From: Polaromonas sp.
Lineage (GTDB): Bacteria > Pseudomonadota > Gammaproteobacteria > Burkholderiales > Burkholderiaceae_C
Assembly: GCA_031414215.1 (NCBI GenBank)
Contig: JANNVB010000049.1
Coordinates: 14,862-78,861, forward strand
Direction of reading: 5' to 3'
Length of the DNA: 64,000 nucleotides
The notes beneath the pieces were generated by a model that searched no databases, was not told the origin of the DNA, and was given only the letters and a program-made list of their open reading frames with translations. Within the stretch, counting starts at the first letter, position 1. Every line of letters begins with the position of its first letter. Position numbers and translations under genes: made by a program. Positions 31,957 to 59,505 of this stretch are shown in pieces.

Positions 31957-34900
31957 TCAACTGTTCAGTTGCAGCCATACCTTCTCAAGCCGTTTGATGC
32001 TAACGGGTTGCGGTGTGCGCAGTTCCTGTGCAAAAAAGCTCACCCGTAACTCCTCCAACAGCCATCGAAACTCTTGCATGCGCGCATCGCTTGCACCCTT
32101 GCGTTCGGCCACCAGTCGCAAGTAGCGTTGTTCTTGGGGTTTGAGCTCTAACATCTTGGCGGCATCTCGTGCCGGGTCCGATCGCCACTTGTCCAGCCGA
32201 GCCGTGATGGCTTTGAGATAGCGCGGAAAGTGTTGCAACTGCGTGTACGGCGTGGCGGTTAAAAACCGTTTGGGGACCAGCCGCTGCAACTGCTGGGCGC
32301 AGTCGGCGCTGGCCTCAACCGCATTTTTTGTGTCCTTGACCTTGCGCTGTGCAACCGTGAATTCAAACAGAACACCGCCCGCCAATCGCGCGATTTCAGT
32401 AGCTATCAGCGTCAGCCGACCGCGACCTTCTTCCAGGCGCTTTTTGAACTCCGCTTCATTGGTTGGCAAAGGCTCCAGCAAAAACGTCCTCGCCAAGGCG
32501 ACTTCAAGAATTTGCCCACGCAATTCCTCCAGCGTTCCGCCACCTGAATTGTCTGCAGCGCGACCCACCAGCATGTAGGCTGTGGCCATTTTCTGCAGAT
32601 CGGGCAGGTTTTTTTCTAGGTACTTGATGGCGTCCTTGATTTGCAGCGCAAACAGGCGGGACAGCCCTGCCCGGTGTTTGGCAGCGGCAAGTTCAGGTTC
32701 GTCAAAGACTTCTATCGTCACGGCATCGACCAAATCGATCAACGCCGGAAACCCAATCAGTGTTTGCGCTCCCTTTCTAATCTCCATCAGCTCAGGCAGC
32801 TCGCCAAAGGCCCAACTGGTGTAGCGCTCAAGCGATTTATGCGCTATTATTTTAGGAGCTGCTTGCTCCCGTATTTGTTGGTTTGGAGGTCTATTTGATA
32901 CCTCAAAAGCATTCAAAACAGGTGTTTTTGAGGTATCAAGGCTTGAAACAGCCAAATTCTTCAGCCCGGCCAGCGCCTGAAACGCCCCGCGCGCCTGCAC
33001 ACCCAAGTCCCCTTTGAGCCCGGCCAGGCTGCGCCCTGCACCCAGTTGCCGGCCATGCTCATCGACCACTCTAAAGTTCATGAACAAGTGTGGCGCTAGC
33101 ATGTCCAGCTTCAAGTCGCCGCGTTTGACATCAACCGCCGTGGCATCGCGCACCAACTTCAACACCGCATCCGTCAATGAGCCTGTACCGAAGACTTCGG
33201 CCTGGCTCAGTTGCTCGGTCATGCGGGCTGCGGTGTCAGGCAGCGGCACCAGGCGCGAGCGGGGCCGCTGGTGCAGGGTTTTGATGAGTGCCTGCACTTT
33301 GTCTTTCAGCATACCCGGCACCAGCCACTCGCAGCGCTCCTCATTGACCTGGTTCAGGGCAAACAGCGGCACATCCACCGTCACGCCGTCTTTTGCATCA
33401 CCTGGCTCATGAAGATACGTGGCCGTGCAGTCCACCCCGCCCAAACGAAGAATTTTCGGAAAAGCCTGCGTCGTGATGCCTGCCGCCTCGTGGCGCATCA
33501 GCTCTTCCTGGGTCAACAAGAGCAGCTTGGGCTGCTTTTTAATTTCTTCCTTGTACCAGGCCTCGCAGCTCGCACCGCTGCAAACATCCGCTGGCAGCTG
33601 CTGGTCGTAAAAGGCGTAAATCAGCTCTTCATCGACCAACACATCTTGCCTGCGGGCTTTGTGCTCCAGGTCTTGGACTTTGGCGATCAGCTTTTCATTG
33701 GCCTTTAGGAATCCGAGCGGCGTATCCCAGTTGCCAGCGACCAAGGCTTCGCGAATGAAAACCTCACGCGCTGCCACTGGGTCAACCCGGCCAAAGTTGA
33801 CGCGCCGCCCGCTGTAAACCACCAAACCATAAAGTGTGGCGCGCTCCAACGCGGTGACTTGCGCGGCTTTTTTCTCCCAATGCGGGTCGAGCAATTGCTT
33901 TTTGAGTAAGTGGCCTGCGACCTGCTCGATCCACTGCGGCTCAATATTGGCAATGCCACGGCCAAAAAGGCGTGTGGTCTCCACCAGCTCGGCGGCCACG
34001 ATCCAGCGACCTGGCTTTTTGCTGAGGTTAGCGCCGGGGTGGCGATAAAACTTAATGCCGCGTGCGCCTAAGTACCAGTCTTCCTCGTCGCTCTTTTGAC
34101 CCAGGTTACCGAGCAAGCCGCACAGCATGGACTGGTGCAGTTGCTCGTAGCTGGCGGGTTTGGTGTTGATGTCCCAGTGCTGCTCGGCCACGGTACTGAC
34201 GAGTTGGGAATGGATGTCGCGCCACTCGCGAACCCGACGCATGTTGATGAAGTTTTCCCTCAACAAATTTTCGTGTTGACGGTTGGAAAGCTTATGTGTT
34301 TGGAGGGTCAGACCCCGATTACCGGAGGTGTCCGCGCCAGCGGGCGGCTCGGTAGATCGGGCTCTGACCCCCACACTTTGTAAGTCCCCGCCCCGCCCAC
34401 CACGCGAATCCCCAAGCCACTTCCAAAGCTTCAAATAACCCACAAACTCGCTTTTTTCGTCGTCAAACTTGGCATGCGCCTGGTCAGCCTGGGCTTGCTT
34501 GTCCATCGGACGGTCACGCACGTCTTGCACGCTCAGGGCGCTGGCGATCACCAATACTTCGTCTAACGCGCCACGGCTTTTGGCCTCCAAAATCATGCGG
34601 CCCACGCGCGGGTCCAGCGGCAGCTTGGCCAGCGTGTGGCCAACGGCGGTGAGTTCGTTGTCGTCGTCCACTGCACCCAACTCGGCCAGCAACTGGTAGC
34701 CGTCTGTCATGGCGCGGCGCTGAGGCGCTTCGATGAAGGCGAAGTCTTCAATCGCACCCAGATGCAGCGCCTTCATGCGCAAAATAACTGCGGCCAATGA
34801 GCTGCGCAAAATCTCGGGGTCGGTAAATCGCTGGCGGCCAGCAAAGTCTTGCGCGTCATACAGCCGTATGCAAATGCCGTCGGCCACCCGGCCGCAGCGC

Positions 34901-35976
34901 CCGGCGCGCTGGTTGGCGGCAGCCTGGCTGATCGGCTCGACCATCAACTGCTCCACCTTGCTCCTGAAGCTGTAGCGTTTGACGCGCGCTGTACCTGCGT
35001 CAATCACATACCGAATCCCCGGTACGGTGAGCGACGTTTCAGCCACATTGGTGGCCAACACGATGCGGCGGTTGTTGTGGTTGGCAAAAATCTGGTCCTG
35101 CTCCGCGGGGCTCAGGCGTGCAAACAACGGCAGCACATCGGCACCGCGATTCAGAGGCTGGTGTGCCAAATGCTTGCGCAGGTGGTCAGCAGCTTCCCTG
35201 ATTTCACGCTCTCCCGGCAAAAAAACCAGAATGTCGCCAGCGTTGTGCGGGCTGAGCCACAGCTCGTCCACGGCATCGGCAATTGCATCGTTCAGGTCAT
35301 AGTCGCGCGATTCTTCAAACGGTCTGTATCTTTGCTCAACCGGAAACATCCGACCAGAAACCATGATGACCGGGGAAGGCCCTTTTGCGGACGCAAAGTA
35401 TTCAGCAAACCGGTTCGCATCAATCGTCGCCGACGTGATGATGACTTTCAAATCGGGTCGGCGCGGCAGCAACTGGCGCAGGTAGCCGAGTAAAAAGTCG
35501 ATGTTCAAGCTGCGCTCGTGCGCCTCATCAATGATGATGGTGTCATAGGCATTGAGCAGCGGGTCGGTTTGCGTCTCAGCCAGCAAAATACCTTCGGTCA
35601 TCAGCTTCACGGATGCGTCCCGGCTCAGGCGGTCCTGAAACCGCACCTTGAAACCCACCACATCGCCCAGCGGTGTTTTAAGTTCTTCCGCTATGCGCTT
35701 GGCCACACTGGATGCAGCAATGCGCCTCGGCTGGGTGTGGCCAATCAGTTTGGCGCGCTGGCCAGCCGGGTAGTTGAGTTTGCCGCGCCCCATGGCCAGC
35801 AAAATTTTGGGCAGTTGCGTGGTTTTGCCAGAGCCGGTTTCACCGCAAACAATCACCACTTGATGCGCGGCAATGGCGGCAGTGATCTCCGCCCGTTTGC
35901 CTGATACGGGCAGCGATTCAGGAAAATCGATGTGCAAAGGTGATGGTGTGTCTACAGGCAAGGACGTGATGCTCAA
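31957..35976 (-). CDS. hrpA: ATP-dependent RNA helicase HrpA (DEAH-box)
   Basis: GETGSGKTTQLPK, IIDEAHERS, ITSATID, QRAGRCGR motifs. 1339 aa. The only available start is TTG 35976, with a GAGG SD. Carries two repeat elements in frame. Confidence 0.95.
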   Translation of the reverse strand: MSITSLPVDTPSPLHIDFPESLPVSGKRAEITAAIAAHQVVIVCGETGSGKTTQLPKILLAMGRGKLNYPAGQRAKLIGHTQPRRIAASSVAKRIAEELKTPLGDVVGFKVRFQDRLSRDASVKLMTEGILLAETQTDPLLNAYDTIIIDEAHERSLNIDFLLGYLRQLLPRRPDLKVIITSATIDANRFAEYFASAKGPSPVIMVSGRMFPVEQRYRPFEESRDYDLNDAIADAVDELWLSPHNAGDILVFLPGEREIREAADHLRKHLAHQPLNRGADVLPLFARLSPAEQDQIFANHNNRRIVLATNVAETSLTVPGIRYVIDAGTARVKRYSFRSKVEQLMVEPISQAAANQRAGRCGRVADGICIRLYDAQDFAGRQRFTDPEILRSSLAAVILRMKALHLGAIEDFAFIEAPQRRAMTDGYQLLAELGAVDDDNELTAVGHTLAKLPLDPRVGRMILEAKSRGALDEVLVIASALSVQDVRDRPMDKQAQADQAHAKFDDEKSEFVGYLKLWKWLGDSRGGRGGDLQSVGVRARSTEPPAGADTSGNRGLTLQTHKLSNRQHENLLRENFINMRRVREWRDIHSQLVSTVAEQHWDINTKPASYEQLHQSMLCGLLGNLGQKSDEEDWYLGARGIKFYRHPGANLSKKPGRWIVAAELVETTRLFGRGIANIEPQWIEQVAGHLLKKQLLDPHWEKKAAQVTALERATLYGLVVYSGRRVNFGRVDPVAAREVFIREALVAGNWDTPLGFLKANEKLIAKVQDLEHKARRQDVLVDEELIYAFYDQQLPADVCSGASCEAWYKEEIKKQPKLLLLTQEELMRHEAAGITTQAFPKILRLGGVDCTATYLHEPGDAKDGVTVDVPLFALNQVNEERCEWLVPGMLKDKVQALIKTLHQRPRSRLVPLPDTAARMTEQLSQAEVFGTGSLTDAVLKLVRDATAVDVKRGDLKLDMLAPHLFMNFRVVDEHGRQLGAGRSLAGLKGDLGVQARGAFQALAGLKNLAVSSLDTSKTPVLNAFEVSNRPPNQQIREQAAPKIIAHKSLERYTSWAFGELPELMEIRKGAQTLIGFPALIDLVDAVTIEVFDEPELAAAKHRAGLSRLFALQIKDAIKYLEKNLPDLQKMATAYMLVGRAADNSGGGTLEELRGQILEVALARTFLLEPLPTNEAEFKKRLEEGRGRLTLIATEIARLAGGVLFEFTVAQRKVKDTKNAVEASADCAQQLQRLVPKRFLTATPYTQLQHFPRYLKAITARLDKWRSDPARDAAKMLELKPQEQRYLRLVAERKGASDARMQEFRWLLEELRVSFFAQELRTPQPVSIKRLEKVWLQLNS
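32843..32960 (+). repeat. Family-A repeat, left half-element inside the hrpA ORF (in frame)
   Basis: gctattattttaggagcTGCTTGCTCCCGTATTTGTTGGtttggaggtc... plus an internal 12-bp hairpin gatacctcaaaa/ttttgaggtatc. Translated on the minus strand as ...SSLDTSKTPVLNAFEVSNRPPNQQIREQAAPKIIAHKS... Confidence 0.85.
34305..34370. repeat. Family-B palindromic (REP-like) element inside the hrpA ORF (in frame)
   Basis: GGGTCAGACCCCGAT (34305-19) and ATCGGGCTCTGACCC (34356-70) are 14/15 inverted repeats. Translated as ...GVRARSTEPPAGADTSGNRGLTL... Confidence 0.75.
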
Positions 35977-36012
35977 AGCCTCACATTATCAACGCCCACA
36001 GCTGATACTGCG

Positions 36013-37236
36013 CTACAGCAAACGGTTATCGGGCAGTTCCACAGTTTCGCCGCTCGAATGGTCAAACCACGCAATTCGGCTGGCGTAGCTGATGGCGGTG
36101 CGCGACATGCGCTGGCCCATGGCAATCGCGTCGGAGCCGCGCGACTCGGGATTTGACACCATCAAAGCGCCGACGCCAATATCTGCCACCCAAAGCGTGC
36201 TTTCTGTCTCAATCCGCGCGGCATCACGGCTGGTGCTCAATGAGACCGAGCGGCGCAGCCGTGCCTCTACGGCTCGGGCCATGTCAATCAACAAGCCACT
36301 TTCTCTGCAATGCGGCATGACCAATACAAACCCGTCGTTTCCTAACCTGCCCATCTCGACATGGCCGGGCACGGTACGGCGCAAACGGGCGGCACACACA
36401 AAAAGTGCGTGGTTCACGGCTGGCGCGCCGTGCAGTTGCTCCAGCGCATACAAATTGGCAATCGTCAGCACCACAATGCCCATGGGTTGCGGCTTGTCAC
36501 GAAAGCTTTTGAACACCGCACCGACCATTTGGCCGGTTTCAGCATGGGAGCGCATGCGCGTCACCGGGTCGTAACTCGGGCCATAAGCCATGAGCTTGTG
36601 GAGTTCAATCAGGTAGGCATAACGCGACCACAGTACCGATGCCATGATGACCATGTACAGCGTGGCAGCCAAAGCGCTGATGGCATGAAGCCGCCAAGAC
36701 ACCCCCAGCGGCTCCAAGGCAATCGCGCTCAGCCCCACCAACGCGACTAGCATGCAGCAAATTGCAAGCACCACCGCCCAAGCCAGGCGGTCACCAGACC
36801 ACGCTTTTTTAAGAGCCGCACCCAACGCAGTCAAACCGAGCAAAGTGGCCGTTGCCGTGCCCAGCATCAAAAACTCCTTGTGTGGCAATTGGAAGCCCCA
36901 GACCAGCACCACCAACAGCAGGCCACCCAAAGCAGCGATGGTGCGGTGCCGCATACGTGGTGATTTTGTAAAACCCAACACAGTCAACAGCAAGTAGGTC
37001 AGCACCACAGAAACAACCATGGTGACAAGCGCCAGGCAGACGGTCTGCGTTTGCGTAGCCCCCATGGGCAACATGCCTAAAAATGCAGCGACATACAAAG
37101 CCGATACCAACGCAGACAAGGCCGCATTCAGCGCGATGCGGCGTAGCGAGCGCGCGTAGGCAAAGGCGGATCCGATCAAGATGCCGACCACCACACCAAA
37201 AAAACAGCCCCACAGGCCAATGGCTAGTTTGTCCAT
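36013..37236 (-). CDS. multi-TM membrane protein with a degenerate GGDEF-like C-terminal domain (paralog 1)
   Basis: About 6-7 N-terminal TM helices. C-terminus DPVTRMRSH...LTIANLYALEQLHG...RLGNDGFVLVM aligns to the GGDEF domain, but GGDEF reads GNDGF and the upstream metal-site Asp is absent. Confidence 0.6.
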   Translation of the reverse strand: MDKLAIGLWGCFFGVVVGILIGSAFAYARSLRRIALNAALSALVSALYVAAFLGMLPMGATQTQTVCLALVTMVVSVVLTYLLLTVLGFTKSPRMRHRTIAALGGLLLVVLVWGFQLPHKEFLMLGTATATLLGLTALGAALKKAWSGDRLAWAVVLAICCMLVALVGLSAIALEPLGVSWRLHAISALAATLYMVIMASVLWSRYAYLIELHKLMAYGPSYDPVTRMRSHAETGQMVGAVFKSFRDKPQPMGIVVLTIANLYALEQLHGAPAVNHALFVCAARLRRTVPGHVEMGRLGNDGFVLVMPHCRESGLLIDMARAVEARLRRSVSLSTSRDAARIETESTLWVADIGVGALMVSNPESRGSDAIAMGQRMSRTAISYASRIAWFDHSSGETVELPDNRLL

Positions 37237-37250
37237 CGCGTCACGTTACA

Positions 37251-38477
37251 TCATGCTCTGGCCTGCAAAACAGGCAGTTCCACAGTTTCACCGCTGGAAT
37301 GGTCAAACCAGGCGATGCGGCTGGCGTAACTGACCGCGGTGCGCGCCAATCGCCGCGCCATCACAATCGCATCTGTGCCGCGAGATTCAGGGTTGACAAT
37401 CATTAGCACACCCACACCGATTTCAGCTACCCACTCGGTGTTGCCACTGCCTAACTGGGATACGTCGCGACTGGTATTGAGCGTGACCGAACGGTGCAGC
37501 CGTGTCTCCAGCGCGCGCGCCAAATCGATGACTTGCTTGCTGTCGGTGCAGTTTTGCATGATGAGCAGAAACCCGTCCGCCCCCAGTCTGCCCATTTCTA
37601 TATGCCGGGGTACCCAACGTCGTAAGCGTGCTGCACATACGAAAAAGGCATTGTTAACCGCAGCAACACCATGCAGTTGCTCCAAAGCGTACAGATTAGC
37701 AATCGTCAGCACCACCACCCCCATGCGCGATGGCTTGTCCCGAAAGTCCTTAAAAATACTACCCACCATTTGTCCGGTTTCTTGATGCGAGCGCATCCGC
37801 GTGACTGGGTCATAGCCTGGGCCGTGTGCCATTACCTCGTGTAACTCAATTAAATACGCATAACGCATCCAAATAACGAAAGCGACTGAAGCCAAATACA
37901 GCGTGGCAGTTCCGGCCGTGATGACATGCACGATCAACAAAGGTTTCCCACGGTTCAGTGCAATCAGGGCCAATCCAACAAACGCCACAAATATACAAAG
38001 TACACTGAAGGCCATAACGCGACCTAGTCGCTCTCCACGCATCGCAATACGAATACTAAATGCCAGTGCGGCTATAGCCAACACGCCGTTGAGAGACAAA
38101 CAGAAAGCAAGCGCCTGAAACGGTGAAAATATCCAGCTCATCGCGAGGATAGCCCCACACAACCCCATCAATACGTAAGCCAAACGCTCGCGTACGTTTG
38201 GCGACTTCAGCATACCCAGAATATTTAACGACTGGTACACGAGAAAGCCAGCGATCAGAGTTGTCAGGTGCGCCAAAAAGCGCGCCAGCGCATCGGGGTC
38301 TTTCAACTGGAAAACTCCCAAAAATGCGACGGTATAAAAAGCCGACATCAATGCCGTCAACGCAGCATTCAGTGAAATGCGGTGCAGGGAACGGGAATAG
38401 GCCACTAACGAGCCCATGAGCATGACCACTGTCATACCAAAAAAGCAGCCCCACAAGCCATGTATCAGTTTTTCCAT
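37251..38477 (-). CDS. multi-TM membrane protein with a degenerate GGDEF-like C-terminal domain (paralog 2)
   Basis: ATG 38477 (MEKLIHGLWGCFFG). Collinear with paralog 1. RLGADGFLLIM in place of GGDEF. Identical tail YASRIAWFDHSSGETVELP. Confidence 0.6.
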   Translation of the reverse strand: MEKLIHGLWGCFFGMTVVMLMGSLVAYSRSLHRISLNAALTALMSAFYTVAFLGVFQLKDPDALARFLAHLTTLIAGFLVYQSLNILGMLKSPNVRERLAYVLMGLCGAILAMSWIFSPFQALAFCLSLNGVLAIAALAFSIRIAMRGERLGRVMAFSVLCIFVAFVGLALIALNRGKPLLIVHVITAGTATLYLASVAFVIWMRYAYLIELHEVMAHGPGYDPVTRMRSHQETGQMVGSIFKDFRDKPSRMGVVVLTIANLYALEQLHGVAAVNNAFFVCAARLRRWVPRHIEMGRLGADGFLLIMQNCTDSKQVIDLARALETRLHRSVTLNTSRDVSQLGSGNTEWVAEIGVGVLMIVNPESRGTDAIVMARRLARTAVSYASRIAWFDHSSGETVELPVLQARA

Positions 38478-38645
38478 CGGGACGAAAGATACCCTGCCCC
38501 GGCTATTGACGCAACCTCTATTTGGAGAAGAGGCCACACACTAAATCACGAAACACGAGCATTTACCTGCTTTACACTTGAATTGTTGTAGGGCCAGCCG
38601 CCCTGATGCCCCTAGTTCTCTTGCTATAGCCTTGTGAGTACGCCC

Positions 38646-39995: not shown

Positions 39996-40006
39996 GTCAG
40001 GTGAAG

Positions 40007-41080: not shown

Positions 41081-41087
41081 GGGTTGA

Positions 41088-43514
41088 CTACTTCTTCAAC
41101 CCAGCCAACTTCCCAAACGCCGAAGCCATCGCTGATGGCACGGCCTGAGGTACTTCTTGTCGGCTGCGGTTTTGATTCTGATTAAACCCAGGCCTTGAGC
41201 CCTCAAAACGGTTATCACGCGGCGCATCACGCCTGGCAGGCGCCTCCCCTAGTTTCATCGTCAGCCCAATCCGCTTGCGGGCCACGTCAATTTCCGTCAC
41301 CCTCACTTTCACGATATCGCCTGTTTTGACGACCTCACGCGCGTCGGTAGTGAACTTGTGGCTGAGCTGGCTGACGTGTACCAGGCCGTCTTGATGCACG
41401 CCGATGTCGATGAATGCGCCGAAGGCTGCGACGTTGCTGACGGTGCCTTCGAGCTCCATGCCTTCACGCAGATCCTTGATGTCTTCCACGCCATCGTTAA
41501 AGCGGGCGACTTTGAAGCTGGGGCGCGGGTCTCGGCCTGGTTTTTCCAGCTCCAGCAAGATGTCTTTGACGGTGATCACGCCAAACTTGTCATTGGCGAA
41601 CAGCTCGGGCTTTAACGTTTTGAGCATGTCGGCGCGGCCCATCAGCTCGGCCACCGGTTTGCCAGTGTGCAGCATGATCTGTTCAACGACAGCATAGGTT
41701 TCGGGGTGAACGCCGGTCATGTCCAGCGGGTTGCTGCTGCCGTTCAAACGTAAAAAGCCTGCGCTTTGCTCAAAGGTTTTTGCGCCCAGGCCTGTCACCT
41801 TCAGCAAGTCAGCCCGGCTGGCAAACGCGCCGTTCGCGTCACGCCAGCGCACGACTGACTTGGCCACGGTTTGGCTCAGACCCGACACCCGCGCCAGCAG
41901 CGGCACGCTGGCGGTATTCAGGTCTACGCCGACGCTGTTCACGCAGTCTTCCACCACGGTGTCCAGGCTACGGGCTAAATCCGACTGGTTCACGTCATGC
42001 TGGTACTGGCCTACACCTATGGATTTTGGGTCAATTTTCACGAGTTCTGCCAACGGGTCTTGCAGGCGGCGCGCAATGCTGGCTGCGCCTCGCAGGCTCA
42101 CGTCCACGTCGGGCATTTCCTGGCTGGCGAACTCGCTGGCCGAATAAACCGATGCGCCAGCTTCACTCACAACTACTTTTTCTACTATGAAATCAGTAGC
42201 TGCTTGCGCCCGTATTGATTGGTCTGGAGCAATATTTGATGTATTTTTTGAGCTCTTTTGGAGCATTTTGATCAAATCTGCAGCCAATTTGTCGGTTTCG
42301 CGGCTGGCGGTGCCATTGCCAATCGCAATCAGGTTCACGCCGTGCTTTTCAGCCAACTTGGCCAGCGTATGCAGCGAGCCGCCCCAGTCTTTGCGCGGCT
42401 CGTGCGGGAAGACGGTGGCCGTTTCAACCAGCTTGCCTGTACTGTCCACCACCGCCACCTTCACCCCCGTGCGTATGCCGGGGTCCAAGCCCATCACCAC
42501 GCGCGGCCCTGCGGGTGCGGCCAACAGCAGGTCGCGCAGGTTGTCGGCAAATACCTTGATGGCGACCTTTTCAGCGTCTTCACGCAACCGGGTGAAAAGG
42601 TCACGCTCCAGTGACAAGCTGAGCTTGACGCGCCAAGCCCAGGCGACGCATTTGCGCAGAAGGTCGTCGGCGGGGCGGGCTCTGTGCGACCAGCCCAAGT
42701 GCAAGGCGATTTTTCCCTCTGCTAAAGAAACCACTGGTCCTTTAACAGGCACATCGCCCAGCGGCGGCTCGGGCAGCAACAGCTTGGCATCCAGAATCTC
42801 CAAACCCCGCCCCCTGAAAACTGCCAGCGCCCGGTGGGACGGCACGCGGCCTATCGGCTCGTCGTAGGCAAAATAGTCGCGAAACTTGGCGTTATCAGCT
42901 AAGTTTTCGTCTTTGCCCGTCACCAGTTTTGAGCTGAACAAGCCTTCAGACCACAACCAGCCGCGCAGCATTTGCACCAGCGCAGCGTCTTCGGCCCAGC
43001 GCTCGCTCAAAATGTCACGCACGCCGTCCAGCACAGCCTGCACGGTGGTGAAGTCGTCGCCCTGCTCGTTTTTGTCTGGCTTCACATACGCCGCAGCTTC
43101 GCCCGCTGGCACAAGCAAAGGATTGGCAAACAGCGCGTCGGCCAGTGGCTCAATGCCCGCCTCACGCGCAATTTGGCCTTTGGTGCGGCGCTTTTGCTTG
43201 TACGGCAGGTACAGGTCTTCCAGGTCTTGCTTGGTGGCAGCCAGCTCAATGGCTGCGCGCAGTTCGGACGTCAGCTTGCCTTGGCTTTCAATGCTGCTCA
43301 GCACGGCTTCACGGCGTTCTGCCAGCTCACGCAGGTAACCCAGGCGGTATTCGAGTTCCCGCAATTGGATGTCGTCCAGCCCGCCAGTGGCTTCTTTGCG
43401 GTAACGGGCAATAAACGGGACTGTTGCGCCGCCGTCCAGCAACTCAACAGCGGTTTTGACCTGATGGTCCTGGACCTTGATTTCGAGCGCGATTTGGCGA
43501 ATGATAGTGTGCAT
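41088..43514 (-). CDS. tex: Tex transcription accessory protein (S1 RNA-binding)
   Basis: ATG 43514 gives MHTIIRQIALEIKVQDHQVKTAVELLDGGATVPFIARYRKEATGGLDD... C-terminal S1 domain GMELEGTVSNVAAFGAFIDIGVHQDGLVHVSQL. The track ORF extension to 43871 is rejected. Carries one repeat in frame. Confidence 0.9.
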   Translation of the reverse strand: MHTIIRQIALEIKVQDHQVKTAVELLDGGATVPFIARYRKEATGGLDDIQLRELEYRLGYLRELAERREAVLSSIESQGKLTSELRAAIELAATKQDLEDLYLPYKQKRRTKGQIAREAGIEPLADALFANPLLVPAGEAAAYVKPDKNEQGDDFTTVQAVLDGVRDILSERWAEDAALVQMLRGWLWSEGLFSSKLVTGKDENLADNAKFRDYFAYDEPIGRVPSHRALAVFRGRGLEILDAKLLLPEPPLGDVPVKGPVVSLAEGKIALHLGWSHRARPADDLLRKCVAWAWRVKLSLSLERDLFTRLREDAEKVAIKVFADNLRDLLLAAPAGPRVVMGLDPGIRTGVKVAVVDSTGKLVETATVFPHEPRKDWGGSLHTLAKLAEKHGVNLIAIGNGTASRETDKLAADLIKMLQKSSKNTSNIAPDQSIRAQAATDFIVEKVVVSEAGASVYSASEFASQEMPDVDVSLRGAASIARRLQDPLAELVKIDPKSIGVGQYQHDVNQSDLARSLDTVVEDCVNSVGVDLNTASVPLLARVSGLSQTVAKSVVRWRDANGAFASRADLLKVTGLGAKTFEQSAGFLRLNGSSNPLDMTGVHPETYAVVEQIMLHTGKPVAELMGRADMLKTLKPELFANDKFGVITVKDILLELEKPGRDPRPSFKVARFNDGVEDIKDLREGMELEGTVSNVAAFGAFIDIGVHQDGLVHVSQLSHKFTTDAREVVKTGDIVKVRVTEIDVARKRIGLTMKLGEAPARRDAPRDNRFEGSRPGFNQNQNRSRQEVPQAVPSAMASAFGKLAGLKK
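42185..42270 (+). repeat. Family-A repeat inside the tex ORF (in frame)
   Basis: ctatgaaatcagtagcTGCTTGCGCCCGTATTGATTGGtctggagcaatatttgatg... Translated on the minus strand as ...MLQKSSKNTSNIAPDQSIRAQAATDFIV... Confidence 0.85.
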
Positions 43515-44127: not shown

Positions 44128-44205
44128 GCTGGGGCCACTTTAAAGTTGTAAGAAGCCGCCATCCCACACGACAAAACAGAGTTACAACACTTTGTGGAGT
44201 CTTTC

Positions 44206-44955
44206 ATGCGCCAGTCAGTCAATTTTTACACTCCTAAATTAATAGCTGCTTGCACCCTGATCTGTTGGTCTGCAGGCACTTTCGCACAGTCAAACCAGTG
44301 CTCAGTGGCCTCCGGGCCCACCATCACACCCGTGGTCGAGCTGTACACCTCTGAAGGCTGCAGCTCTTGCCCGCCCGCCGACAAATGGGCGTCCAGCCTA
44401 AAAGGCAGCAACACGGTGGTGCAAGCCTTTCATGTCGGTTACTGGGACTACATCGGTTGGGTAGACCGTTTTGCAGCGCCCGCCTACACCCAGCGCCAAC
44501 GCGAGATTGCGGCTAAAAACAATCTGCGCAGCATCTACACCCCGCAAGCCGTACTCGACGGCAAAGACTGGCCGCGCTGGGGGGGCAAGCCTGAAGGCAA
44601 AGAGCCTGCCAAAGCAACAATCACATTGAAGCAACTTGGCACTGACCAGTTTGAAGCCAGCGTCACACCTATCTTGCCCGCCACCAACTGGTCAGCCTAC
44701 TGGACAGTCACCGAGCACGGCCACAACTCCAAGGTGCTGGCGGGCGAAAACAAAGGCGAGTTTTTAAAACACGACTTTGTAGTGCGCCAACTGGTGCAAG
44801 CTGGCGACTACAAAGCGGGCGATACAGCGGCCCAAAAGCTCACCTTCCGCAGCATCGCGCCTACGCCTGGCCACCCGCGCCAGGTCAATTTGGTGGTGTT
44901 TGACGCCAAAACGGGCAAAACCCTGCAGGCGGTGAGCTTGCAGTGCGCCGCGTGA
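44206..44955 (+). CDS. DUF1223-family secreted thioredoxin-like protein
   Basis: ATG 44206 with a GGAG SD. Signal peptide. VELYTSEGCSSCPPADKW motif characteristic of DUF1223. Confidence 0.7.
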   Translation: MRQSVNFYTPKLIAACTLICWSAGTFAQSNQCSVASGPTITPVVELYTSEGCSSCPPADKWASSLKGSNTVVQAFHVGYWDYIGWVDRFAAPAYTQRQREIAAKNNLRSIYTPQAVLDGKDWPRWGGKPEGKEPAKATITLKQLGTDQFEASVTPILPATNWSAYWTVTEHGHNSKVLAGENKGEFLKHDFVVRQLVQAGDYKAGDTAAQKLTFRSIAPTPGHPRQVNLVVFDAKTGKTLQAVSLQCAA

Positions 44956-46247: not shown

Positions 46248-46263
46248 CGTATTTTGAAATTTC

Positions 46264-46322
46264 GCTGTATAAAAAATAGCTGCCTGCACCCGTATTCATT
46301 GGACTAAAGGCCTATTTGTACC
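46264..46322 (+). repeat. Family-A repeat, solo end
   Basis: gctgtataaaaaatagcTGCCTGCACCCGTATTCATTGGactaaaggcctatttgtacc. Confidence 0.8.
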
Positions 46323-46398
46323 TTATATCGGCATGCCTATGACTGGCAACCGAAGCACTTATCTAGGTTCAGCACCATGCCAATTTGTGCACGTATCT

Positions 46399-52008: not shown

Positions 52009-52025
52009 CCGGGCATTCAAGCGGG

Positions 52026-52457: not shown

Positions 52458-52474
52458 GGAGCCCTGCCTGCCGT

Positions 52475-52858: not shown

Positions 52859-52926
52859 GGAAAGCTTCTCCTTAGAGCTTATTCAATGTGGGTGGCTCTA
52901 TTGAAAATGCAGGCAGTACCGCCGTC

Positions 52927-52942
52927 TGTTCGTTAGCGCACA
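52927..52942. promoter_or_regulatory. palindrome TGTTCG-TTAG-CGCACA (site C of the shared motif)
   Basis: 69-84 nt upstream of the 52858 start. Followed by TA, as in sites A and B (CGCACATA). Confidence 0.4.
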
Positions 52943-52991
52943 TAGTACAGTTTGTGACTTATTTATTTTGATGTTTTAAAGTAACTAATAT

Positions 52992-53112
52992 GCTATGTTT
53001 TTAGGAGCTTTTTACGCCCGTATTTATTAGTTTAGAGGCCTAAACAGTACCTATAAAGTGTCTGAAAACAGAGCTTTAAGTGCTTTTTAAGACGCAAAAC
53101 ACCCGTTTTGAC
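52992..53112 (+). repeat. Family-A repeat, degenerate left half-element
   Basis: gctatgtttttaggagcTTTTTACGCCCGTATTTATTAGtttagaggcctaaacagtacctataaag... Confidence 0.7.
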
Positions 53113-53122
53113 TATGGCCTGC

Positions 53123-53824: not shown

Positions 53825-53939
53825 GAAAAGCCTTTGGTGCGCTGCTGCCCTTCAGGTTGAAGGAATGAGCCACGGCCCTGCTGCTGAAGTTAGCAGTCTT
53901 GATCGATGGGTTAGCTTATAGGAAATGAGCTGAAATGTT

Positions 53940-53955
53940 TGCGTGCTACCGCACA
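53940..53955. promoter_or_regulatory. site B of the shared motif (TGCGTG-CTAC-CGCACA; alternative left half TTTGCG at N6)
   Basis: 116-131 nt upstream of the 53824 start. Right half CGCACATA is perfect and the left half is weak. Confidence 0.3.
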
Positions 53956-54002
53956 TAGCGCCGAAACCAGCCAGATAAGCGCCAATAGACTACACCACTG
54001 GG

Positions 54003-54752: not shown

Positions 54753-54843
54753 GGTGAAACTCCTGTTAGGCCAGCTTTGCATCACTACCGCAGGACGGTT
54801 TGGCACAAAGTCCAGCAGTCTAGACACATTGTGCGCGTTTATC

Positions 54844-54859
54844 TGTGCGCTAACGCACA
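54844..54859. promoter_or_regulatory. perfect palindrome TGTGCG-CTAA-CGCACA (site A of the shared motif)
   Basis: 92-107 nt upstream of the 54752 start. An extra half-site TTGTGCGCG lies at 54829-37. Confidence 0.45.
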
Positions 54860-54901
54860 TAACTGTTACACGGCGCTAATGCAAAGTGTTAATACAAAGC
54901 G

Positions 54902-57900
54902 TTAATGAAAATCACGACTGGGCGTACCCAGCCGACCCAGCAGGGGCGACAAGTCCTCCAGGCTGGCGGCAATCAGGTTACGTACTTTGCCAAAGCCTTC
55001 AGGCGCGCCGTCTTCTTCACTGCGCTGCCATGTGCCGTACACGGCCAACAGCCGGGCATGCAGCACCTCAGCGCGCTGGGTTTGCCGCAATGACTTCCAG
55101 ACAATCACATTGATCGACCCGGTTTCGTCTTCAAGGGTGAGGAACATCGTGCCTTTGGCGGTTGAGGGCTGCTGGCGCAGCGTGACGATACCGCAGGCGG
55201 CGACGTCTTCGCCATCGGGCAGTGCGTTGAGCTGCGCGGCGGTTAAAAAGCCTTTTTCAGCCAGGCGTGAGCGCAGCAGTGCCAGCGGGTGGCGGCGCAG
55301 CGTGAGGCCGGTGGCGCGGTAGTCGAACAAAATGTTTTCACCCTCGGGCGTGTCTGGCAGGTCGAGTGCCGCCTCGTGCGTGGGCACGGCTTTTAGCAGC
55401 AGTGGCTGCGGTTTGATGGCTGCTGCTTGCCACACCTGCTGCCTGCGGTGGCCGGCCAGCGGGGCGAGTGCATCGGCGGCGGCCAGGGCGTTGACCTCTA
55501 AGGTGCCGAGCTGGGCGCGCAGGCAGAGGTCTTCAACACTGGTGAATGCGGCTTGGCTTCTGGCGGTCAGGATGCGGTCAACCGTGGTCTCGCTCAGGCC
55601 GCTGACCAGGCGCAGCCCCAGGCGAATGGCGGGCTGGTTGGGGCGTATGCCGGGGTAGGCTGCATCAGGTTCACGCAAAACCGCATTTGCCTCAAGGGTG
55701 CAGTCCCAGGCGCTTTGGGTGATGTCGATGGCTCGTACGTCAACCCCGTGCCTGCGGGCGTCTTGCATCAGTTGCGACGGTGAATAAAACCCCATCGGCT
55801 GGGAGTTGACGAGTGCAGCAAAAAAACAGGCGGGTTCATGGCATTTGAGCCAGCAACTGACATACACCAGCTTGGCAAAGCTGGCGGCGTGGCTTTCAGG
55901 AAAACCGTATTCGCCAAAGCCTTCAATCTGCTTGAAGATGTTGTCGGCAAAGCTGCGCTCATAGCCGCGCTCAACCATGCGGCCCACCAGCCGGTCGTAA
56001 AACCGCTTGACGCCGCCCTTTCGCTTCCAGGCGGCCATGGAGCGGCGCAGGTCATCGGCCTCGCCAGCGGTAAAGTCAGCCGCCACCATGGCGATTTGCA
56101 TGACCTGCTCTTGAAATATCGGCACGCCCAGGGTGCGGCCCAGGGCGCGGCGCAGCTCTTCATTGGGGTAGGTTTCAAGCTGCGGGTTGGCGCGGCGTTT
56201 GAGGTAAGGGTGCACCATGCCGCCTTGAATCGGCCCGGGCCGCACGATGGCGACTTCAACCACCAGGTCGTAAAAGCAGCGCGGTTTGAGGCGCGGCAGC
56301 ATGCTCATTTGCGCCCGGCTTTCGATTTGAAACACGCCCACCGTATCGGCCTGGCAAATCATGTCGTAGGTTTGCTCGTCGCCTGACGGGATCTGGTGCA
56401 TCTCCAGGCGCCCACCGCGCCACTGGTCAATCAGCTGCAAGCTGCGCCGAATGGCCGACAACATGCCGAGCGCCAGCACATCAACTTTCAGCAGACCCAT
56501 CGCGTCCAGGTCGTCTTTGTCCCACTGAATGATGCGCCGCGCCTCCATGGTGGCGGGCTGAATCGGCACCAGCCGTGTCAGCTTGGATTGCGTCAGCACA
56601 AAGCCGCCCACATGCTGGCCCAAGTGGCGCGGGAAACCGAGCAATTGCACCGTCAGGTCCAGCCACTGCAAGATCGGGCCAGCGTCTTTTGCTTCGTTGA
56701 TATTGGCTTCTTGCAGGCGCTGAGCCAGCAGGCCGCTGCCGTCAAACCAGAAGTTTTCTTTGGCAAACTGCTCAATCATTTCAGGTGCAATACCGAGTGC
56801 CTTTCCCACATCACGAATGGCGCTGCGGGGCCGGTAGCAGGTGACGGTGGCGGCTATTGCCGCGCGGTCATGGCCGTATTTGGCGTAGATGTACTGAATC
56901 ACTTCTTCACGCCGTTGGTGCTCAAAGTCAACATCAATGTCGGGCGGCTCTTTGCGTTCGCGGCTGATAAAGCGTTCAAACAGCAATTGGCTTTCAGCCG
57001 GGTTGACCGCCGTGATGCCGAGGCAAAAGCACACCGCCGAATTGGCCGCAGAGCCGCGCCCCTGACACAAAATGCCCTGCTCGCGCGCAAAGCGGACGAT
57101 GTCATGCACGGTGATGAAATACATCTCGTAGTGCAGCTCTTCAATCAGGGCGAGTTCATGCGCCAGCTGGGTGCTGATTTGTGCGGGCACACCGCCCGGG
57201 TAGCGCTGGGCTGCGCCATCGCCTGTCAGGCGGCGCAGGCAGTTGGCGGGGGTTTCTTGTGTGGCGGCGATCTCGCCCAGCGGGTAGCGGTAAAGGTCAC
57301 GAATTTCGTTCAGGTTAAACGTGCAGCGCGACGCGACAACCAGGGTGGCTGCCAGCAGCTCGGGCGGGTACAAGCTGGCCAGCCGCATGCGGGGCCGCAA
57401 ATGCGCCTCAGCGTTGGGCTGCAGGGCAAAGCCGCAGTCGTGGACGGTTTTACTCAGCCCAATGGCGGTGAGGACGTCGTGCAGCGGCTTGCGTGATCGC
57501 ACATGCATGCGCACGTCCCCGCAAGCGAGAAGCGGCACGCCGGTTTGCTGGCTGAGTACCTGCAATTGCTGCAGGCGCAGCGCGTCGTCCAGCCCTTGCA
57601 GCAGCTCGACGCCAAGCCACATATGGGCGCTTTTTTGGGTATTAAAAAGGCCTTTTAACCAATGAATACGGGCGCAAGCAGCTTCTGTATTGATAGCACC
57701 TTGCACCAGGCAGACAATGACCTCACAGTGCTTCAGAATCGACAAGTCTGTACTTGGCGTGACCAAATAGCTGCCTTTTTCCACGGCATCGCCTGCGGCT
57801 CTGGCTTGGGTAATAAATTCGCACAGGTTGCCCCAGCCGCTGGCGTTGTGCGGCAACACCACCAGGCGAAAAGGCGAGTCACACGACACCCAAAACTCGG

Positions 57901-58099
57901 CTCCCGGCAGCAGCTGAATGCCGCATTTTTCAGCCTCGCCATGGGCCCGCACCACACCGGCGACCGAACATTCGTCTGTCATCGCGATGGCTTTGTAGCC
58001 CAGGGCGTGGGCGCGCGCTACCAGCTCCTCAGCGTGCGACGCGCCGCGCTGAAAGCTGAAATTGCTCAGCACATGGAGTTCAGCGTATTCCGGAAGCAT
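54902..58099 (-). CDS. dnaE2: error-prone DNA polymerase DnaE2 (ImuC)
   Basis: ATG 58099 gives MLPEYAELHVLSNFSFQRGAS (PHP domain), then the Pol III alpha core. 1-nt TAATG overlap with imuB. Carries one repeat in frame. Confidence 0.9.
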   Translation of the reverse strand: MLPEYAELHVLSNFSFQRGASHAEELVARAHALGYKAIAMTDECSVAGVVRAHGEAEKCGIQLLPGAEFWVSCDSPFRLVVLPHNASGWGNLCEFITQARAAGDAVEKGSYLVTPSTDLSILKHCEVIVCLVQGAINTEAACARIHWLKGLFNTQKSAHMWLGVELLQGLDDALRLQQLQVLSQQTGVPLLACGDVRMHVRSRKPLHDVLTAIGLSKTVHDCGFALQPNAEAHLRPRMRLASLYPPELLAATLVVASRCTFNLNEIRDLYRYPLGEIAATQETPANCLRRLTGDGAAQRYPGGVPAQISTQLAHELALIEELHYEMYFITVHDIVRFAREQGILCQGRGSAANSAVCFCLGITAVNPAESQLLFERFISRERKEPPDIDVDFEHQRREEVIQYIYAKYGHDRAAIAATVTCYRPRSAIRDVGKALGIAPEMIEQFAKENFWFDGSGLLAQRLQEANINEAKDAGPILQWLDLTVQLLGFPRHLGQHVGGFVLTQSKLTRLVPIQPATMEARRIIQWDKDDLDAMGLLKVDVLALGMLSAIRRSLQLIDQWRGGRLEMHQIPSGDEQTYDMICQADTVGVFQIESRAQMSMLPRLKPRCFYDLVVEVAIVRPGPIQGGMVHPYLKRRANPQLETYPNEELRRALGRTLGVPIFQEQVMQIAMVAADFTAGEADDLRRSMAAWKRKGGVKRFYDRLVGRMVERGYERSFADNIFKQIEGFGEYGFPESHAASFAKLVYVSCWLKCHEPACFFAALVNSQPMGFYSPSQLMQDARRHGVDVRAIDITQSAWDCTLEANAVLREPDAAYPGIRPNQPAIRLGLRLVSGLSETTVDRILTARSQAAFTSVEDLCLRAQLGTLEVNALAAADALAPLAGHRRQQVWQAAAIKPQPLLLKAVPTHEAALDLPDTPEGENILFDYRATGLTLRRHPLALLRSRLAEKGFLTAAQLNALPDGEDVAACGIVTLRQQPSTAKGTMFLTLEDETGSINVIVWKSLRQTQRAEVLHARLLAVYGTWQRSEEDGAPEGFGKVRNLIAASLEDLSPLLGRLGTPSRDFH
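57641..57697 (-). repeat. Family-A repeat inside the dnaE2 ORF (in frame)
   Basis: attaaaaaggccttttaaCCAATGAATACGGGCGCAAGCAGCttctgtattgatagc. Read on the minus strand as GAINTEAACARIHWLKGLFN. Confidence 0.85.
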
Positions 58100-59505
58100 T
58101 ACGCAAAGACTCCTTGCAAATACCACTCGCGCTGGTTTTGGTCACGTTCAGCCAACGCCAGGCGCTCGCTGTAAATCCAAAGCAACACACCCTGCCGGTT
58201 GCGGTAAATAAAGTAGTCGCGCAGTGCTGGCGCGATGTCAGCCTGGTCAGCAAGCAGCCAGCCAGTGGCCTCCAGACGCTGCGGCCCGGCCAGTTTGTGC
58301 AGCGGGCCCTGGTACACCGGGCTGCCCGCCACGGCGGCAAGCTTCAAAGGCACGGCCAGCAGCCAGGAGGGGTATAAAACACCGTTTTCAAGCCTGTTTT
58401 CAGTGTCTTTTAGGCCTTTTGACCAATGAATACGGGCGCAAGCAGCTCCTGATTTAATAGCGTTTGTTGTGCTGACTGCATTCTGCCAGCGCTGCATTTG
58501 CTCCGGCCGGTGGTCTGCACAGGCTTGCCAGGTTTGCACTTGTGCAGCGCCCAGCCGTGCGCTTAAACGCTCGATCAGTTGCAGCGCGCTGTCGCCCTGC
58601 TGTTTGTCCTCTGGCAGCAAGCTGGTGGTTGCGAGTGCACAGGCGCACAGCTTTTCGGTCACCAGCGACTGCAAGCCAATGGTGTGCACGGGGGCAGCCA
58701 GGGTTTGCTGGTTCAGCCGCTCGGTGATCAGCCGCGCCACATGCCGCAGGTCTTGCGCGTTGTTGGCTGATCGAACCACCAACTCGCCAGTTGCCGCCCC
58801 GCCCCGGCGTTTGTCAAAGTGCCAAATGATTTTTAGTGCCGTCAAACCGCTCTGGCGGCCCAGCAGCCAGGCCTGCAATTGCGCCAAGAGTTGCGACACA
58901 CCGGCCATCAACGCTGGGGCATGCACCACCAGCGCATCAAGCTCGAGCTTTTCATCAAACTGCTCGGGCAGTTGCAGCCAGGTATAGCTGTCGGGCAGCA
59001 CGCCCCGAGCCCGGTCCAGTGCGGCCAGCAGCGGCGCGCCAAAGCGGCGGGCCACGCCGTCGCGCGGCAGCTTGAGCAGGTCGTCCCAGGTGCGGCAACC
59101 CATGCGTTCGAGCACGTCCAGGTGCGGGCGAGCGGCGCTTAAAGTGTGCATCGGCATGTCGGCTACCCGGCCAGCGGGCTGCACTGGCTGGCCGCGCTGC
59201 AAGCGCAAGCGCCCGAGTGCTATTAATGATGTAGCGCCTTGCGCCCGTATATATTGGGCTAGAGGCATATTTAATGCTAAAAACTGCTGCAATTGCTGCT
59301 CTAGCAGGGCCAAGAGCTTGCGCAAACCACCAAACAGCCGCAAGCTGCCGGAGACTTCCATCACCACGGCTTCGTCGAGCAGGGCCACGCGCGGGGTAAA
59401 ACCCAGCGCAATGGCGCTGATGGCCCGCTGCAAGGCGGCGTCGTCCATCAGCATGGGCTCAGTGAAGGACTCAGTGGATGAGGCTTGTAACGCGATCCAG
59501 CGCAT
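58099..59505 (-). CDS. imuB: Y-family-polymerase-like ImuB
   Basis: MRWIALQ... start. Sits between imuA and dnaE2 in the canonical cassette order. Carries two repeats in frame. Confidence 0.8.
   Translation of the reverse strand: MRWIALQASSTESFTEPMLMDDAALQRAISAIALGFTPRVALLDEAVVMEVSGSLRLFGGLRKLLALLEQQLQQFLALNMPLAQYIRAQGATSLIALGRLRLQRGQPVQPAGRVADMPMHTLSAARPHLDVLERMGCRTWDDLLKLPRDGVARRFGAPLLAALDRARGVLPDSYTWLQLPEQFDEKLELDALVVHAPALMAGVSQLLAQLQAWLLGRQSGLTALKIIWHFDKRRGGAATGELVVRSANNAQDLRHVARLITERLNQQTLAAPVHTIGLQSLVTEKLCACALATTSLLPEDKQQGDSALQLIERLSARLGAAQVQTWQACADHRPEQMQRWQNAVSTTNAIKSGAACARIHWSKGLKDTENRLENGVLYPSWLLAVPLKLAAVAGSPVYQGPLHKLAGPQRLEATGWLLADQADIAPALRDYFIYRNRQGVLLWIYSERLALAERDQNQREWYLQGVFA
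58408..58461 (-). repeat. Family-A repeat inside the imuB ORF (in frame)
   Basis: ttttaggccttttgaCCAATGAATACGGGCGCAAGCAGCtcctgatttaatagc. Read on the minus strand as AIKSGAACARIHWSKGLK. Confidence 0.85.
59219..59275 (+). repeat. Family-A repeat inside the imuB ORF (in frame, opposite orientation)
   Basis: gctattaatgatgtagcGCCTTGCGCCCGTATATATTGGgctagaggcatattt. Read on the minus strand as PLAQYIRAQGATSLIAL. Confidence 0.8.

Follow-up and report, generated by a model that had tools for sequence, protein, structure and literature searches.

How a repeat family that is dispersed between bacterial genes can also be carried inside conserved coding sequences, and what becomes of the proteins that read it, is the question raised by a stretch of 64,000 nucleotides from Polaromonas sp. 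(assembly GCA_031414215.1, contig JANNVB010000049.1, positions 14,862-78,861 of the forward strand; GC content ~56%), referred to below as the window. An earlier note on this DNA had described five copies of a repeat as in-frame insertions in hrpA, tex, dnaE2 and, twice, imuB, and had likened them to the Rickettsia palindromic elements (RPEs), which add peptide segments to proteins. All five copies are indeed translated within unbroken genes; at two of the sites, imuB site 1 and dnaE2, the repeat occupies a native core segment and leaves its length unchanged. The evidence is probably best accommodated by an ancient family resembling MITEs (miniature transposable elements with inverted repeats) or REPINs (inverted doublets of repetitive extragenic palindromes, REPs), which has been partly inserted and partly overwritten into genes and whose conserved head is maintained at the nucleotide level.

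The repeat is recognized most readily by its core, AGCTGCTTGCGCCCGTATTNATTGG, which has 15 matches in the window at three or fewer mismatches against 0.00 expected in shuffled sequences; a repeat finder likewise recovered repeat families in both orientations. An nhmmer profile was trained solely on the 11 intergenic copies of the window, and the coding copies were scored with that profile. The five reported copies, all in genes on the minus strand, were detected with E values of 1e-11 to 1e-17, and a sixth, degenerate in-frame copy was found that the earlier note had missed, together with two genes whose stop codon is supplied by the repeat. Copies read within genes are the following:

hrpA (31957-35976, minus strand): head at 32841-32908, plus strand; antisense frame, SNRPPNQQIREQAAPKIIA; 47.6 bits, E 5e-14
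tex (41088 to ~43514, minus strand): head at 42183-42240, plus strand; antisense frame, SNIAPDQSIRAQAATDFIV; 51.8 bits, E 3e-15
dnaE2 (54902-58126, minus strand): head at 57633-57699, minus strand; sense frame, AINTEAACARIHWLKGLF; 53.7 bits, E 7e-16
imuB site 2 (imuB 58099-59505, minus strand): head at 58397-58463, minus strand; sense frame, AIKSGAACARIHWSKGLK; 59.6 bits, E 1e-17
imuB site 1 (same gene): head at 59217-59283, plus strand; antisense frame, LNMPLAQYIRAQGATSLIA; 40.4 bits, E 1e-11
DUF1223 gene: degenerate sixth copy at 44235-44280, plus strand; sense frame; 19.9 bits, E 2.5e-5

HrpA, the error-prone DNA polymerase DnaE2 and ImuA (NF033429) were identified from NCBIfam and Tex from PDB entries 2oce/3bzc (E 2e-264); ImuB was identified from the names of its orthologues and from fold comparison, a search of its sequence against the PDB having returned nothing useful. 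The peptides quoted previously (hrpA ...VSNRPPNQQIREQAAPKIIAHKS, tex ...SNIAPDQSIRAQAATDFIV, dnaE2 ...GAINTEAACARIHWLKGLFN, imuB ...AIKSGAACARIHWSKGLK and ...PLAQYIRAQGATSLIAL) are exact on translation of the open reading frames (ORFs). Dozens of orthologues have ORFs that are open through the same sites, so the genes are not pseudogenes.

It is scarcely credible that the matches at imuB site 1 and dnaE2 arose by chance, or by convergence from amino-acid constraint on alanine-rich helices in a GC-rich genome. Outgroup peptides do share the residue patterns A..T...A and A.I.W....F, as this explanation would have it; nevertheless, it is effectively refuted by the E values of 1e-11 and 7e-16 that a model of intergenic copies alone assigns to the two sites. 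The dnaE2 copy moreover matches the core at 25 of 25 positions, the matches extend over residues that are not conserved and employ rare codons, and the DNA of outgroups with the same residue pattern is unrelated and not repeat-like.

The comparison that distinguishes insertion from replacement used ImuB orthologues and 80 related genomic loci, mostly from Polaromonas but including Rhodoferax-type and other Comamonadaceae of 40-50% identity (genomic loci are labelled L and protein orthologues P, each with a number), and four Burkholderiales outgroups, Eleftheria, Burkholderia, Ralstonia and Paraburkholderia. At imuB site 1, alignment is free of gaps against 80 orthologous loci, 122 distant representatives and the four outgroups. 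The general pattern at this site is G.APT(S/A)L.AL.LAR, which in Comamonadaceae takes the form (R)AQ(A/G)ATSL(I/V)A. An AlphaFold model of ImuB, computed with 79 diverse sequences as input (mean predicted local distance difference test score, pLDDT, 87.7; predicted template modelling score, pTM, 0.81), shows the site as a strand (residues 83-90) and the start of a helix (93-105) at pLDDT 93-97, and matches the folds of DinB, Dpo4 and Pol eta with a probability of 1.0, which places the site in the Y-family core and not in a loop. In dnaE2, the copy overlays a native helix of the PHP domain that has the same length in ~70 orthologues and the four outgroups; W and F stand in the matching columns of outgroup peptides, e.g., LDAQIEWFAAVFGD. 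Four extra codons that match the repeat tail occur there only in the window and in L001. The pattern at both sites is thus one of native segments replaced with no net change in length.

The other three copies lie in loops and linkers. Relative to Pseudomonas aeruginosa Tex (2oce), 21 extra residues in a loop of the YqgF domain coincide exactly with the repeat. Among 120 Tex orthologues of at least 85% identity, most carry diverged versions of the repeat peptide, P0200, P0233 and P0234 are without it, and P0127, P0160, P0183, P0196 and P0230 have a different insert in the same loop (PHTVRPELVEGLASTSSARTE-like or SVRAEPVEASPSTSSGRTG). Filled alleles measure 153 nt and empty ones 99 nt, a net gain of 54 nt, with ~66 nt of repeat standing in place of ~9-12 native nt. 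The tex copy is a true insertion, and the different peptides inserted in close relatives mark the Tex loop as a recurrent landing site. The imuB site 2 copy, located in the linker that joins the Y-family domain to the C-terminal domain, is also a real insertion that provides extra linker relative to the outgroups: the ImuBs of Eleftheria, Burkholderia and Paraburkholderia plasmids are ~25-30 residues shorter there, and decayed versions of the peptide are present in nearly all Polaromonas and several Rhodoferax-type proteins. The modelled pLDDT of ~50 is in keeping with a place at the protein surface.

The hrpA copy is likely an ordinary linker insertion. It is situated in a linker that is hypervariable, rich in Ala and Pro and flanked by ALAGLK and ERYTSWxFGELPELMEI, with residues 1002-1053 unaligned to Escherichia coli HrpA (9ggr), and its head is followed by an 18-bp hairpin tail that extends to ~32950 (hairpin z-score -4.65). 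Repeat-like peptides (SNxPxAQxxRAQAAPxxIA) are found in orthologues down to 68% identity. The linker is ~12 residues long in E. coli and 35-45 in all Comamonadaceae orthologues, repeat-like or not, and since its length is the same in either case, no clean presence/absence indel is seen.

Copies within genes are also found beyond the window. A metagenome scan for the exact repeat core covered 80 contigs (545 kb in total), in which nhmmer located 146 copies; nine of these (eight unique; ~6%) lie inside long ORFs with high GC content at third codon positions (GC3), a count that depends on GC3 as a heuristic for calling ORFs. The gene names that follow, from the penicillin-acylase-like protein to the short-chain dehydrogenase/reductase (SDR), are readings of the sequences. 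Sense-frame copies (AIxxGAACARIxW) occur in a penicillin-acylase-like protein, ComEC and LdcA, antisense-frame copies (QxIRAQxAxxxIA) in PurK, a MocR-type regulator and a BioC-like methyltransferase, while the AceE and SDR copies are read in two other frames. The PurK copy aligns without gaps to Burkholderia PurK (4e4t), in which the native ARVEEAQQAAVRIA corresponds to the repeat-coded AQSIRAQAATESIA, and is a third case without an indel; the LdcA copy is a ~20-residue insertion in an interdomain linker. The ComEC/Rec2-like copy (L158 4103-4159 / L161 7692-7748), a single case, lies between predicted membrane segments.

These results bear on the expectation of the earlier note that every copy would be an in-frame insertion in a surface loop, visible among orthologues as a clean presence/absence indel. 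Insertion holds for tex and, broadly, for the linkers of imuB site 2 and hrpA; the clean indel is seen in tex and is absent from hrpA, imuB site 1 and dnaE2, the last two of which carry the repeat in native secondary structure. That all five are plain in-frame insertions of a selfish palindromic element, in the manner of RPEs, is accordingly very unlikely. The tex copy behaves exactly so, the imuB site 2 and ldcA copies lengthen linkers, and the restricted use of frames is similar to that of RPEs (PMC10969869). Against this stand the two sites at which plain insertion is already refuted, indel-free as they are relative to ~70 orthologues, four outgroups and 122 distant homologues, the buried position of imuB site 1 (pLDDT 93-97), the gap-free purK copy, and a head that is not a strong palindrome (fold z-scores of +1.2 to -4.7). 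The same peptide segments in orthologues from genomes that lack the family had been named in advance as an observation that would tell against insertion, and in spirit this is what imuB site 1 and dnaE2, two of the five sites, present.

Other inserted segments were noted in the same genes. The alternative Tex-loop inserts PHTVRPELVEGLASTSSARTE and SVRAEPVEASPSTSSGRTG resemble the translation of another, GC-rich repeat family. Residues 526-561 of HrpA (GGRGGDLQSVGVRARSTEPPAGADTSGNRGLTLQTH; window 34290-34400) form a second, unrelated in-frame segment that is absent from E. coli HrpA, is encoded by an imperfect palindrome (GGGGTCAGAGCCCGATC...GATCGGGGTCTGACCC) and occurs also in the hrpA orthologues of L028 (20859-20928) and L045 (20608-20700). 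In L002 (~10500-10800), L006 (~6800-7100) and L018 (~10850-11100), dnaE2 has an insertion of 50-80 residues just downstream of the repeat site (e.g., ...SFLTPSPFGAVACGSKSANADLDRPKSS...PTPTSPARG), with related sequence in the ImuB linker of P0062 and P0100; it looks like another in-frame, read-through repeat.

Frame use is biased. The earlier statement that each orientation is read in one frame is correct for the window, and two frames, +1 in sense and -0 in antisense, account for 12 of 14 coding copies overall. Among intergenic window copies, sense frame +1 is open in more cases (4 of 11) than any other frame, and avoidance of stops explains its use. Antisense frame -0 contains a stop in all 11 intergenic window copies (Q*IRAQAAT, from ATTyATTGG); the three antisense coding copies of the window have lost it through three different single-base changes, to CAA, TCA and TAT, and the metagenomic antisense coding copies are likewise without it. 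Frame -2 is no richer in stops than frame -0, so stop avoidance does not fully explain the choice of antisense frame, and compatibility of the encoded peptide, an Ala-rich former of strands and helices, probably contributes to it.

The coding copies are also old. The three imuB/dnaE2 copies have counterparts at identical positions in relatives whose ImuB is 62-74% identical (e.g., L001, L002, L004, L006 and L016), and the copy upstream of imuA has equivalents in L016, L023, L059 and L061. Positions shared in this way indicate copies that are ancient and vertically inherited in intact genes, as opposed to recent hops or pseudogenes; none of the five is recent, all being shared with relatives in this range of ImuB identity. 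Four copies lie in or beside the LexA-regulated imuA-imuB-dnaE2 operon against ~0.8 expected per ~3 kb at the average density of the window, by a rough post-hoc estimate, and three of these positions are found again in many related genomes (for the upstream one, in four loci).

Conservation at these sites extends to the choice of codons. In 12 orthologues, synonymous codon identity for the three imuB/dnaE2 copies, counted only at codons with the same amino acid in window and orthologue, was 0.77-0.86 inside the repeat vs 0.53-0.65 outside it, with Fisher p values of 0.001-0.016 in 10 of the 12 comparisons and no significance in two; all 12 pairwise tests share the window sequence, and the statistics ignore phylogeny. 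The rare codons kept at imuB site 1 and dnaE2 are those that match the repeat. At imuB site 1, GCT is present in 51 of 61 Polaromonas orthologues (gene-wide share 10%), TCT in 39 of 61 (3%) and ATA in 51 of 61 (15%), and in Rhodoferax-type orthologues GCT and ATA are present in 9 of 11 each (14% and 18% gene-wide). In dnaE2, GCT is found at two positions in 36/49 and 30/49 orthologues, with a gene-wide share of 7%. Among the conservation measures applied, only codon-aware ones single out the sites.

A conserved mRNA structure at imuB site 1 was also considered and was dropped, as RNAalifold on 73 orthologues returned only a 4-bp GCUA/UAGC stem of -1.8 kcal.

The codon signature is pertinent to the reverse direction of transfer, in which a fragment of imuB, or of some other gene, gave rise to the repeat family and imuB site 1 is the ancestral source. 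The signature, GCG CAA GGN GCT ACA TCT TTR ATA GC, is kept in Rhodoferax-type orthologues, whose loci have no dispersed copies outside imuB in ~200 kb, and the Comamonadaceae ImuB motif RAQAAT is exactly what the most conserved repeat core encodes. A single source, however, cannot explain full-length overlays in the unrelated ImuB, DnaE2 and PurK; the AT-ending codons found at the site have gene-wide shares of only 3-15%, a rarity that is the mark of foreign sequence, and similarity ends exactly at the repeat boundaries, with none in flanking imuB. An origin within a gene is therefore held to be highly improbable.

What kind of element the family represents is indicated by its copies outside genes. 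With the intergenic-trained profile, the window yields 16 strong copies besides a weak one and a partial fragment, in near-equal numbers in the two orientations, a density of ~0.25 copies per kb (16 in 64 kb). Copies outside coding sequence, and the regulatory site next to one of them, are listed here:

4642-4708, 10337-10403, 46262-46327 and 52991-53057, plus strand: intergenic copies, nhmmer 50-65 bits
13323-13385, 18514-18580, 19363-19428 and 23018-23084, minus strand: intergenic copies, nhmmer 50-65 bits
8975-9042 (plus strand) and 9122-9189 (minus strand): paired unit, 215 bp in total, found by the repeat finder and nhmmer
60468-60527, plus strand: intergenic copy upstream of the imuA-imuB-dnaE2 operon, 53.6 bits
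60292-60307: LexA-type SOS box CTGTTTATATGTACAG upstream of imuA (59471-60256, minus strand), the sole CTGT-N8-ACAG match in the window
29257-29285: partial 5' fragment, 16.8 bits with the intergenic-only model
22881-22905: partial 5' fragment, 9.3 bits, obtained only with a model that included three coding copies

By the ORF lists, all 11 intergenic copies are located where one gene or more has its 3' end, and where several of them overlap gene ends the repeat supplies the stop codon; the family behaves like a REP/REPIN- or MITE-like element. Its head of ~57 nt (GCTAT-N9-AGCTGCTTGCGCCCGTATTyATTGG...) encloses the near-invariant core of 25 nt. The head consensus from 17 aligned copies, CGCTAT-AAAT-AGTAGCTGCTTGCGCCCGTATTTATTGGTCT--AGGCCTATTTGA, is also that of the pooled 146 metagenomic copies, which have a sharp 5' boundary at GCTAT. 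The head is AT-rich in parts, contains the sequence GTAGC and has no significant fold, its sole conserved pairing being a 4-5 bp GCTA(T)...(A)TAGC stem. Hairpins occur only in the variable tails of some copies (z +1.2 to -4.7), and significant z-scores are restricted to two copies with strong tail hairpins.

The full-length unit at 8975-9189, 215 bp long, carries two ~65-nt heads as terminal inverted repeats. Together with five units in metagenome loci, the inverted head pairs number six in the +/- arrangement and none in the -/+ arrangement, and five of the six (the window unit and four of the five metagenomic ones) are 213-215 bp in length. Heads and length are thus kept, while the interiors have diverged beyond recognition. 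The family is present across Polaromonas at a lower density than in the window. An Rfam scan of the whole window at gathering thresholds returned only a tRNA, and the repeat thus corresponds to no RNA family described so far; a literature search on the core sequence gave no matching paper, and none was found on REP, MITE or REP-associated tyrosine transposase (RAYT) that mentions Polaromonas.

Individual gene ends illustrate these arrangements. The ORF at 60502-62115 (minus strand) has a stop at 60502-60504 that is the consensus antisense TAA of the copy at 60468-60527, and ends in ...FALGQGQ*; the ORF at 7672-8985 (plus strand) takes its stop, 8983-8985, from the first head of the paired unit and ends in ...AI*. 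The copy at 13323-13385 exactly fills a 52-nt gap between convergent genes and overlaps the end of the ORF at 12940-13335.

A conserved head with variable surroundings could also be a signal. One form of this idea holds that the head is a functional DNA motif driven or selected in place, whether as an uptake or recombination signal like the DNA uptake sequences and uptake signal sequences (DUS/USS) or as a host-factor site, and that no insertion took place. Indel-free coding copies, preferred frames and tolerant residues are the pattern of uptake sequences (Findlay and Redfield, PMC2817400), the two orientations are about equal, inverted pairs lie at gene ends, and paired units conserve their heads but not their interiors. 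Inside genes, conservation extends to synonymous sites and rare codons, and four copies lie in or next to the imuABC operon, three of them at positions that recur in relatives. On the other hand, 57 nt with a near-invariant core of 25 nt is far above known uptake signals and makes an origin by point mutation implausible; the density is ~0.25 per kb and ~6% of metagenomic copies lie in ORFs vs 35-65% for USS/DUS (PMC2817400), and the tex and imuB site 2 copies are real insertions. Selection in place is thus considered unlikely; the in-frame comEC copy carries no weight either way for the uptake-signal idea. A second form, in which the head is a functional signal (for binding of a host or element protein, recombination or uptake) maintained so strongly that native core segments in ImuB, DnaE2 and PurK were rewritten codon for codon to carry it while the proteins adapted to the motif, is possible, if doubtful. 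Were it true, the four conserved SOS-operon copies would be signs that the head helps to control, or to recombine, the SOS mutagenesis cassette.

Comparison with known systems helps to define what is new in this family. In-frame intragenic MITEs and RPEs are well described, also outside Rickettsia (reviewed in PMC10969869), and indel-free coding copies have been described only for short uptake sequences (PMC2817400). With RPEs (Ogata et al., 2000, 2002, cited in PMC10969869), the family shares the nature of small, non-autonomous, multicopy repeats, some of them in frame in unrelated housekeeping genes, whose conserved peptide is read through in restricted frames without loss of the gene. It differs in its host, a member of the Comamonadaceae and not Rickettsia, in its unrelated sequence, and in a head that is not a strong palindrome and does not form a stable long hairpin. 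Moreover, two window copies and the purK copy replace core secondary structure without an indel where RPEs would add a surface loop, and the copies are genus-wide with synonymous sites that look constrained. As the host is betaproteobacterial by the names of its orthologues, membership in the RPEs by descent is implausible.

REP and REPIN-RAYT systems resemble the family in being short, abundant, mostly at gene 3' ends and vertically inherited over long periods, in combining singlets with inverted doublets of fixed length, and in the GTAGC of the head. The head is, however, 57 nt vs 20-40 in REPs and is neither a GC-rich hairpin nor a palindrome, the doublet is ~213 bp, and REPs are extragenic by definition. 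MITEs with intragenic copies (ERIC, Nezha, QMITE1 and others; PMC10969869; Delihas, PMC3184786) share the size range, in-frame ORF fusions, and terminal inverted repeats around a full unit without coding capacity, as at 8975-9189 (215 bp). In contrast to MITEs, the family gave no sign of a target-site duplication, its units have unconserved interiors, single half-elements dominate, and no parent insertion sequence is known. DUS/USS share indel-free coding copies (here at three sites, imuB site 1, dnaE2 and purK) in preferred frames with tolerated residues, and inverted pairs at gene ends (PMC2817400), but have short cores (9-12 nt) at ~1 per kb, whereas the motif here is five times longer, its density and coding fraction are much lower, and some copies are clear insertions (tex, imuB site 2). 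The phenomenon is of a known kind, that of small repeats translated in genes, and the feature unreported for this kind is length-neutral overwriting of core structure with genus-wide persistence of the nucleotide sequence.

The reading preferred here, an ancient family partly inserted and partly overwritten into genes, can be set out as follows. A Polaromonas-like host harbours an old, genus-wide, non-coding repeat family with a ~57-nt head and a variable hairpin tail, the full unit of ~213 bp having two heads as terminal inverted repeats and most copies being single heads. Copies lie mainly at gene 3' ends, and a minority overlap genes and are translated. Along one route (tex, imuB site 2, ldcA and likely hrpA), a copy inserts into a tolerant loop or linker and survives only in a stop-free frame. 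Along the other, seen as a pattern at imuB site 1, dnaE2 and purK, a native strand or helix is replaced codon for codon with zero net length change, at sites where the repeat peptide (IRAQAAT..IA or AACARIxW..GLF) mimics the native residue pattern. Such replacement might be templated by dispersed copies through gene conversion or template switching, or a copy might first insert beside the native motif and the partial repeats so formed then give rise to a deletion between them. In either event, selection for the integrity of the fold would pass only products that preserve length and pattern, and the head may be kept up inside genes by continued conversion from the family, by a drive process or by a sequence-specific function of its own.

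Several observations weigh against this account. No flanking direct repeats that would represent a target-site duplication were present at five full units, and comparison of filled and empty tex alleles showed no clear one, although a short duplication could have decayed, the copies being old. No transposase was present among the window ORFs examined, and a RAYT was not searched for genome-wide; with neither a mobilizing gene nor a target-site duplication, mobility is deduced from copy number only. Outgroup DNA at imuB site 1 and dnaE2 shares only ~50-55% identity with the repeat, and classical homologous gene conversion would need more than that for the first event. Codon identity at imuB site 1, compared all against all, does not exceed the mean of the gene, and when window and orthologues are compared in sliding 60-nt segments, the identity of the sites ranks between the 12th and 77th percentiles. 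The shared reference of the 12 synonymous tests and the heuristic calling of metagenomic ORFs, both mentioned above, belong here as well, as do the Rhodoferax-type loci, in which long vertical retention, or a gene-to-repeat direction, accounts for the imuB site 1 signature in the absence of dispersed copies no less well than conversion does. The replacement mechanism has been reconstructed and not observed directly, and the data do not separate its two routes.

In-frame small repeats are known as a means by which selfish DNA adds loops to proteins, and the family described here also appears to have overwritten core strands and helices at unchanged length, to persist thereafter across a genus with rare codons that match the repeat. 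If this account is true, repeat families can remodel conserved protein cores, beyond surface decoration, and a force at the nucleotide level (conversion, drive or function) can compete in the long term with constraint at the protein level. The imuB, dnaE2, purK and tex genes of Polaromonas, with filled, empty and differently filled alleles, offer a system for studying the conservation of REP-/MITE-like heads. In practice, repeat-coded segments will mislead annotation and the placement of domain boundaries in Comamonadaceae genomes.

The degenerate copy in the DUF1223 gene (ORF 44194-44955, plus strand) encodes the hydrophobic core (KLIAACTLICWSAGTFA) of a putative signal peptide, MRQSVNFYTPKLIAACTLICWSAGTFA|Q, the DUF1223 domain of the product starting at residue 47; on the strength of its sequence, the repeat may have been co-opted there as a signal sequence. 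Elsewhere in the window, an unrelated two-copy repeat at 10257-10309 and 12589-12641 (77% identity) reads GAAA.AATGG.A.AA.AA.GGGGG.CA.ACTCCAATTGATTTCAA. A 161-nt direct repeat at 36032-36192 and 37273-37433 (76% identity) falls in the adjacent minus-strand ORFs 36013-37236 and 37251-38537, which are probably tandem paralogous genes.

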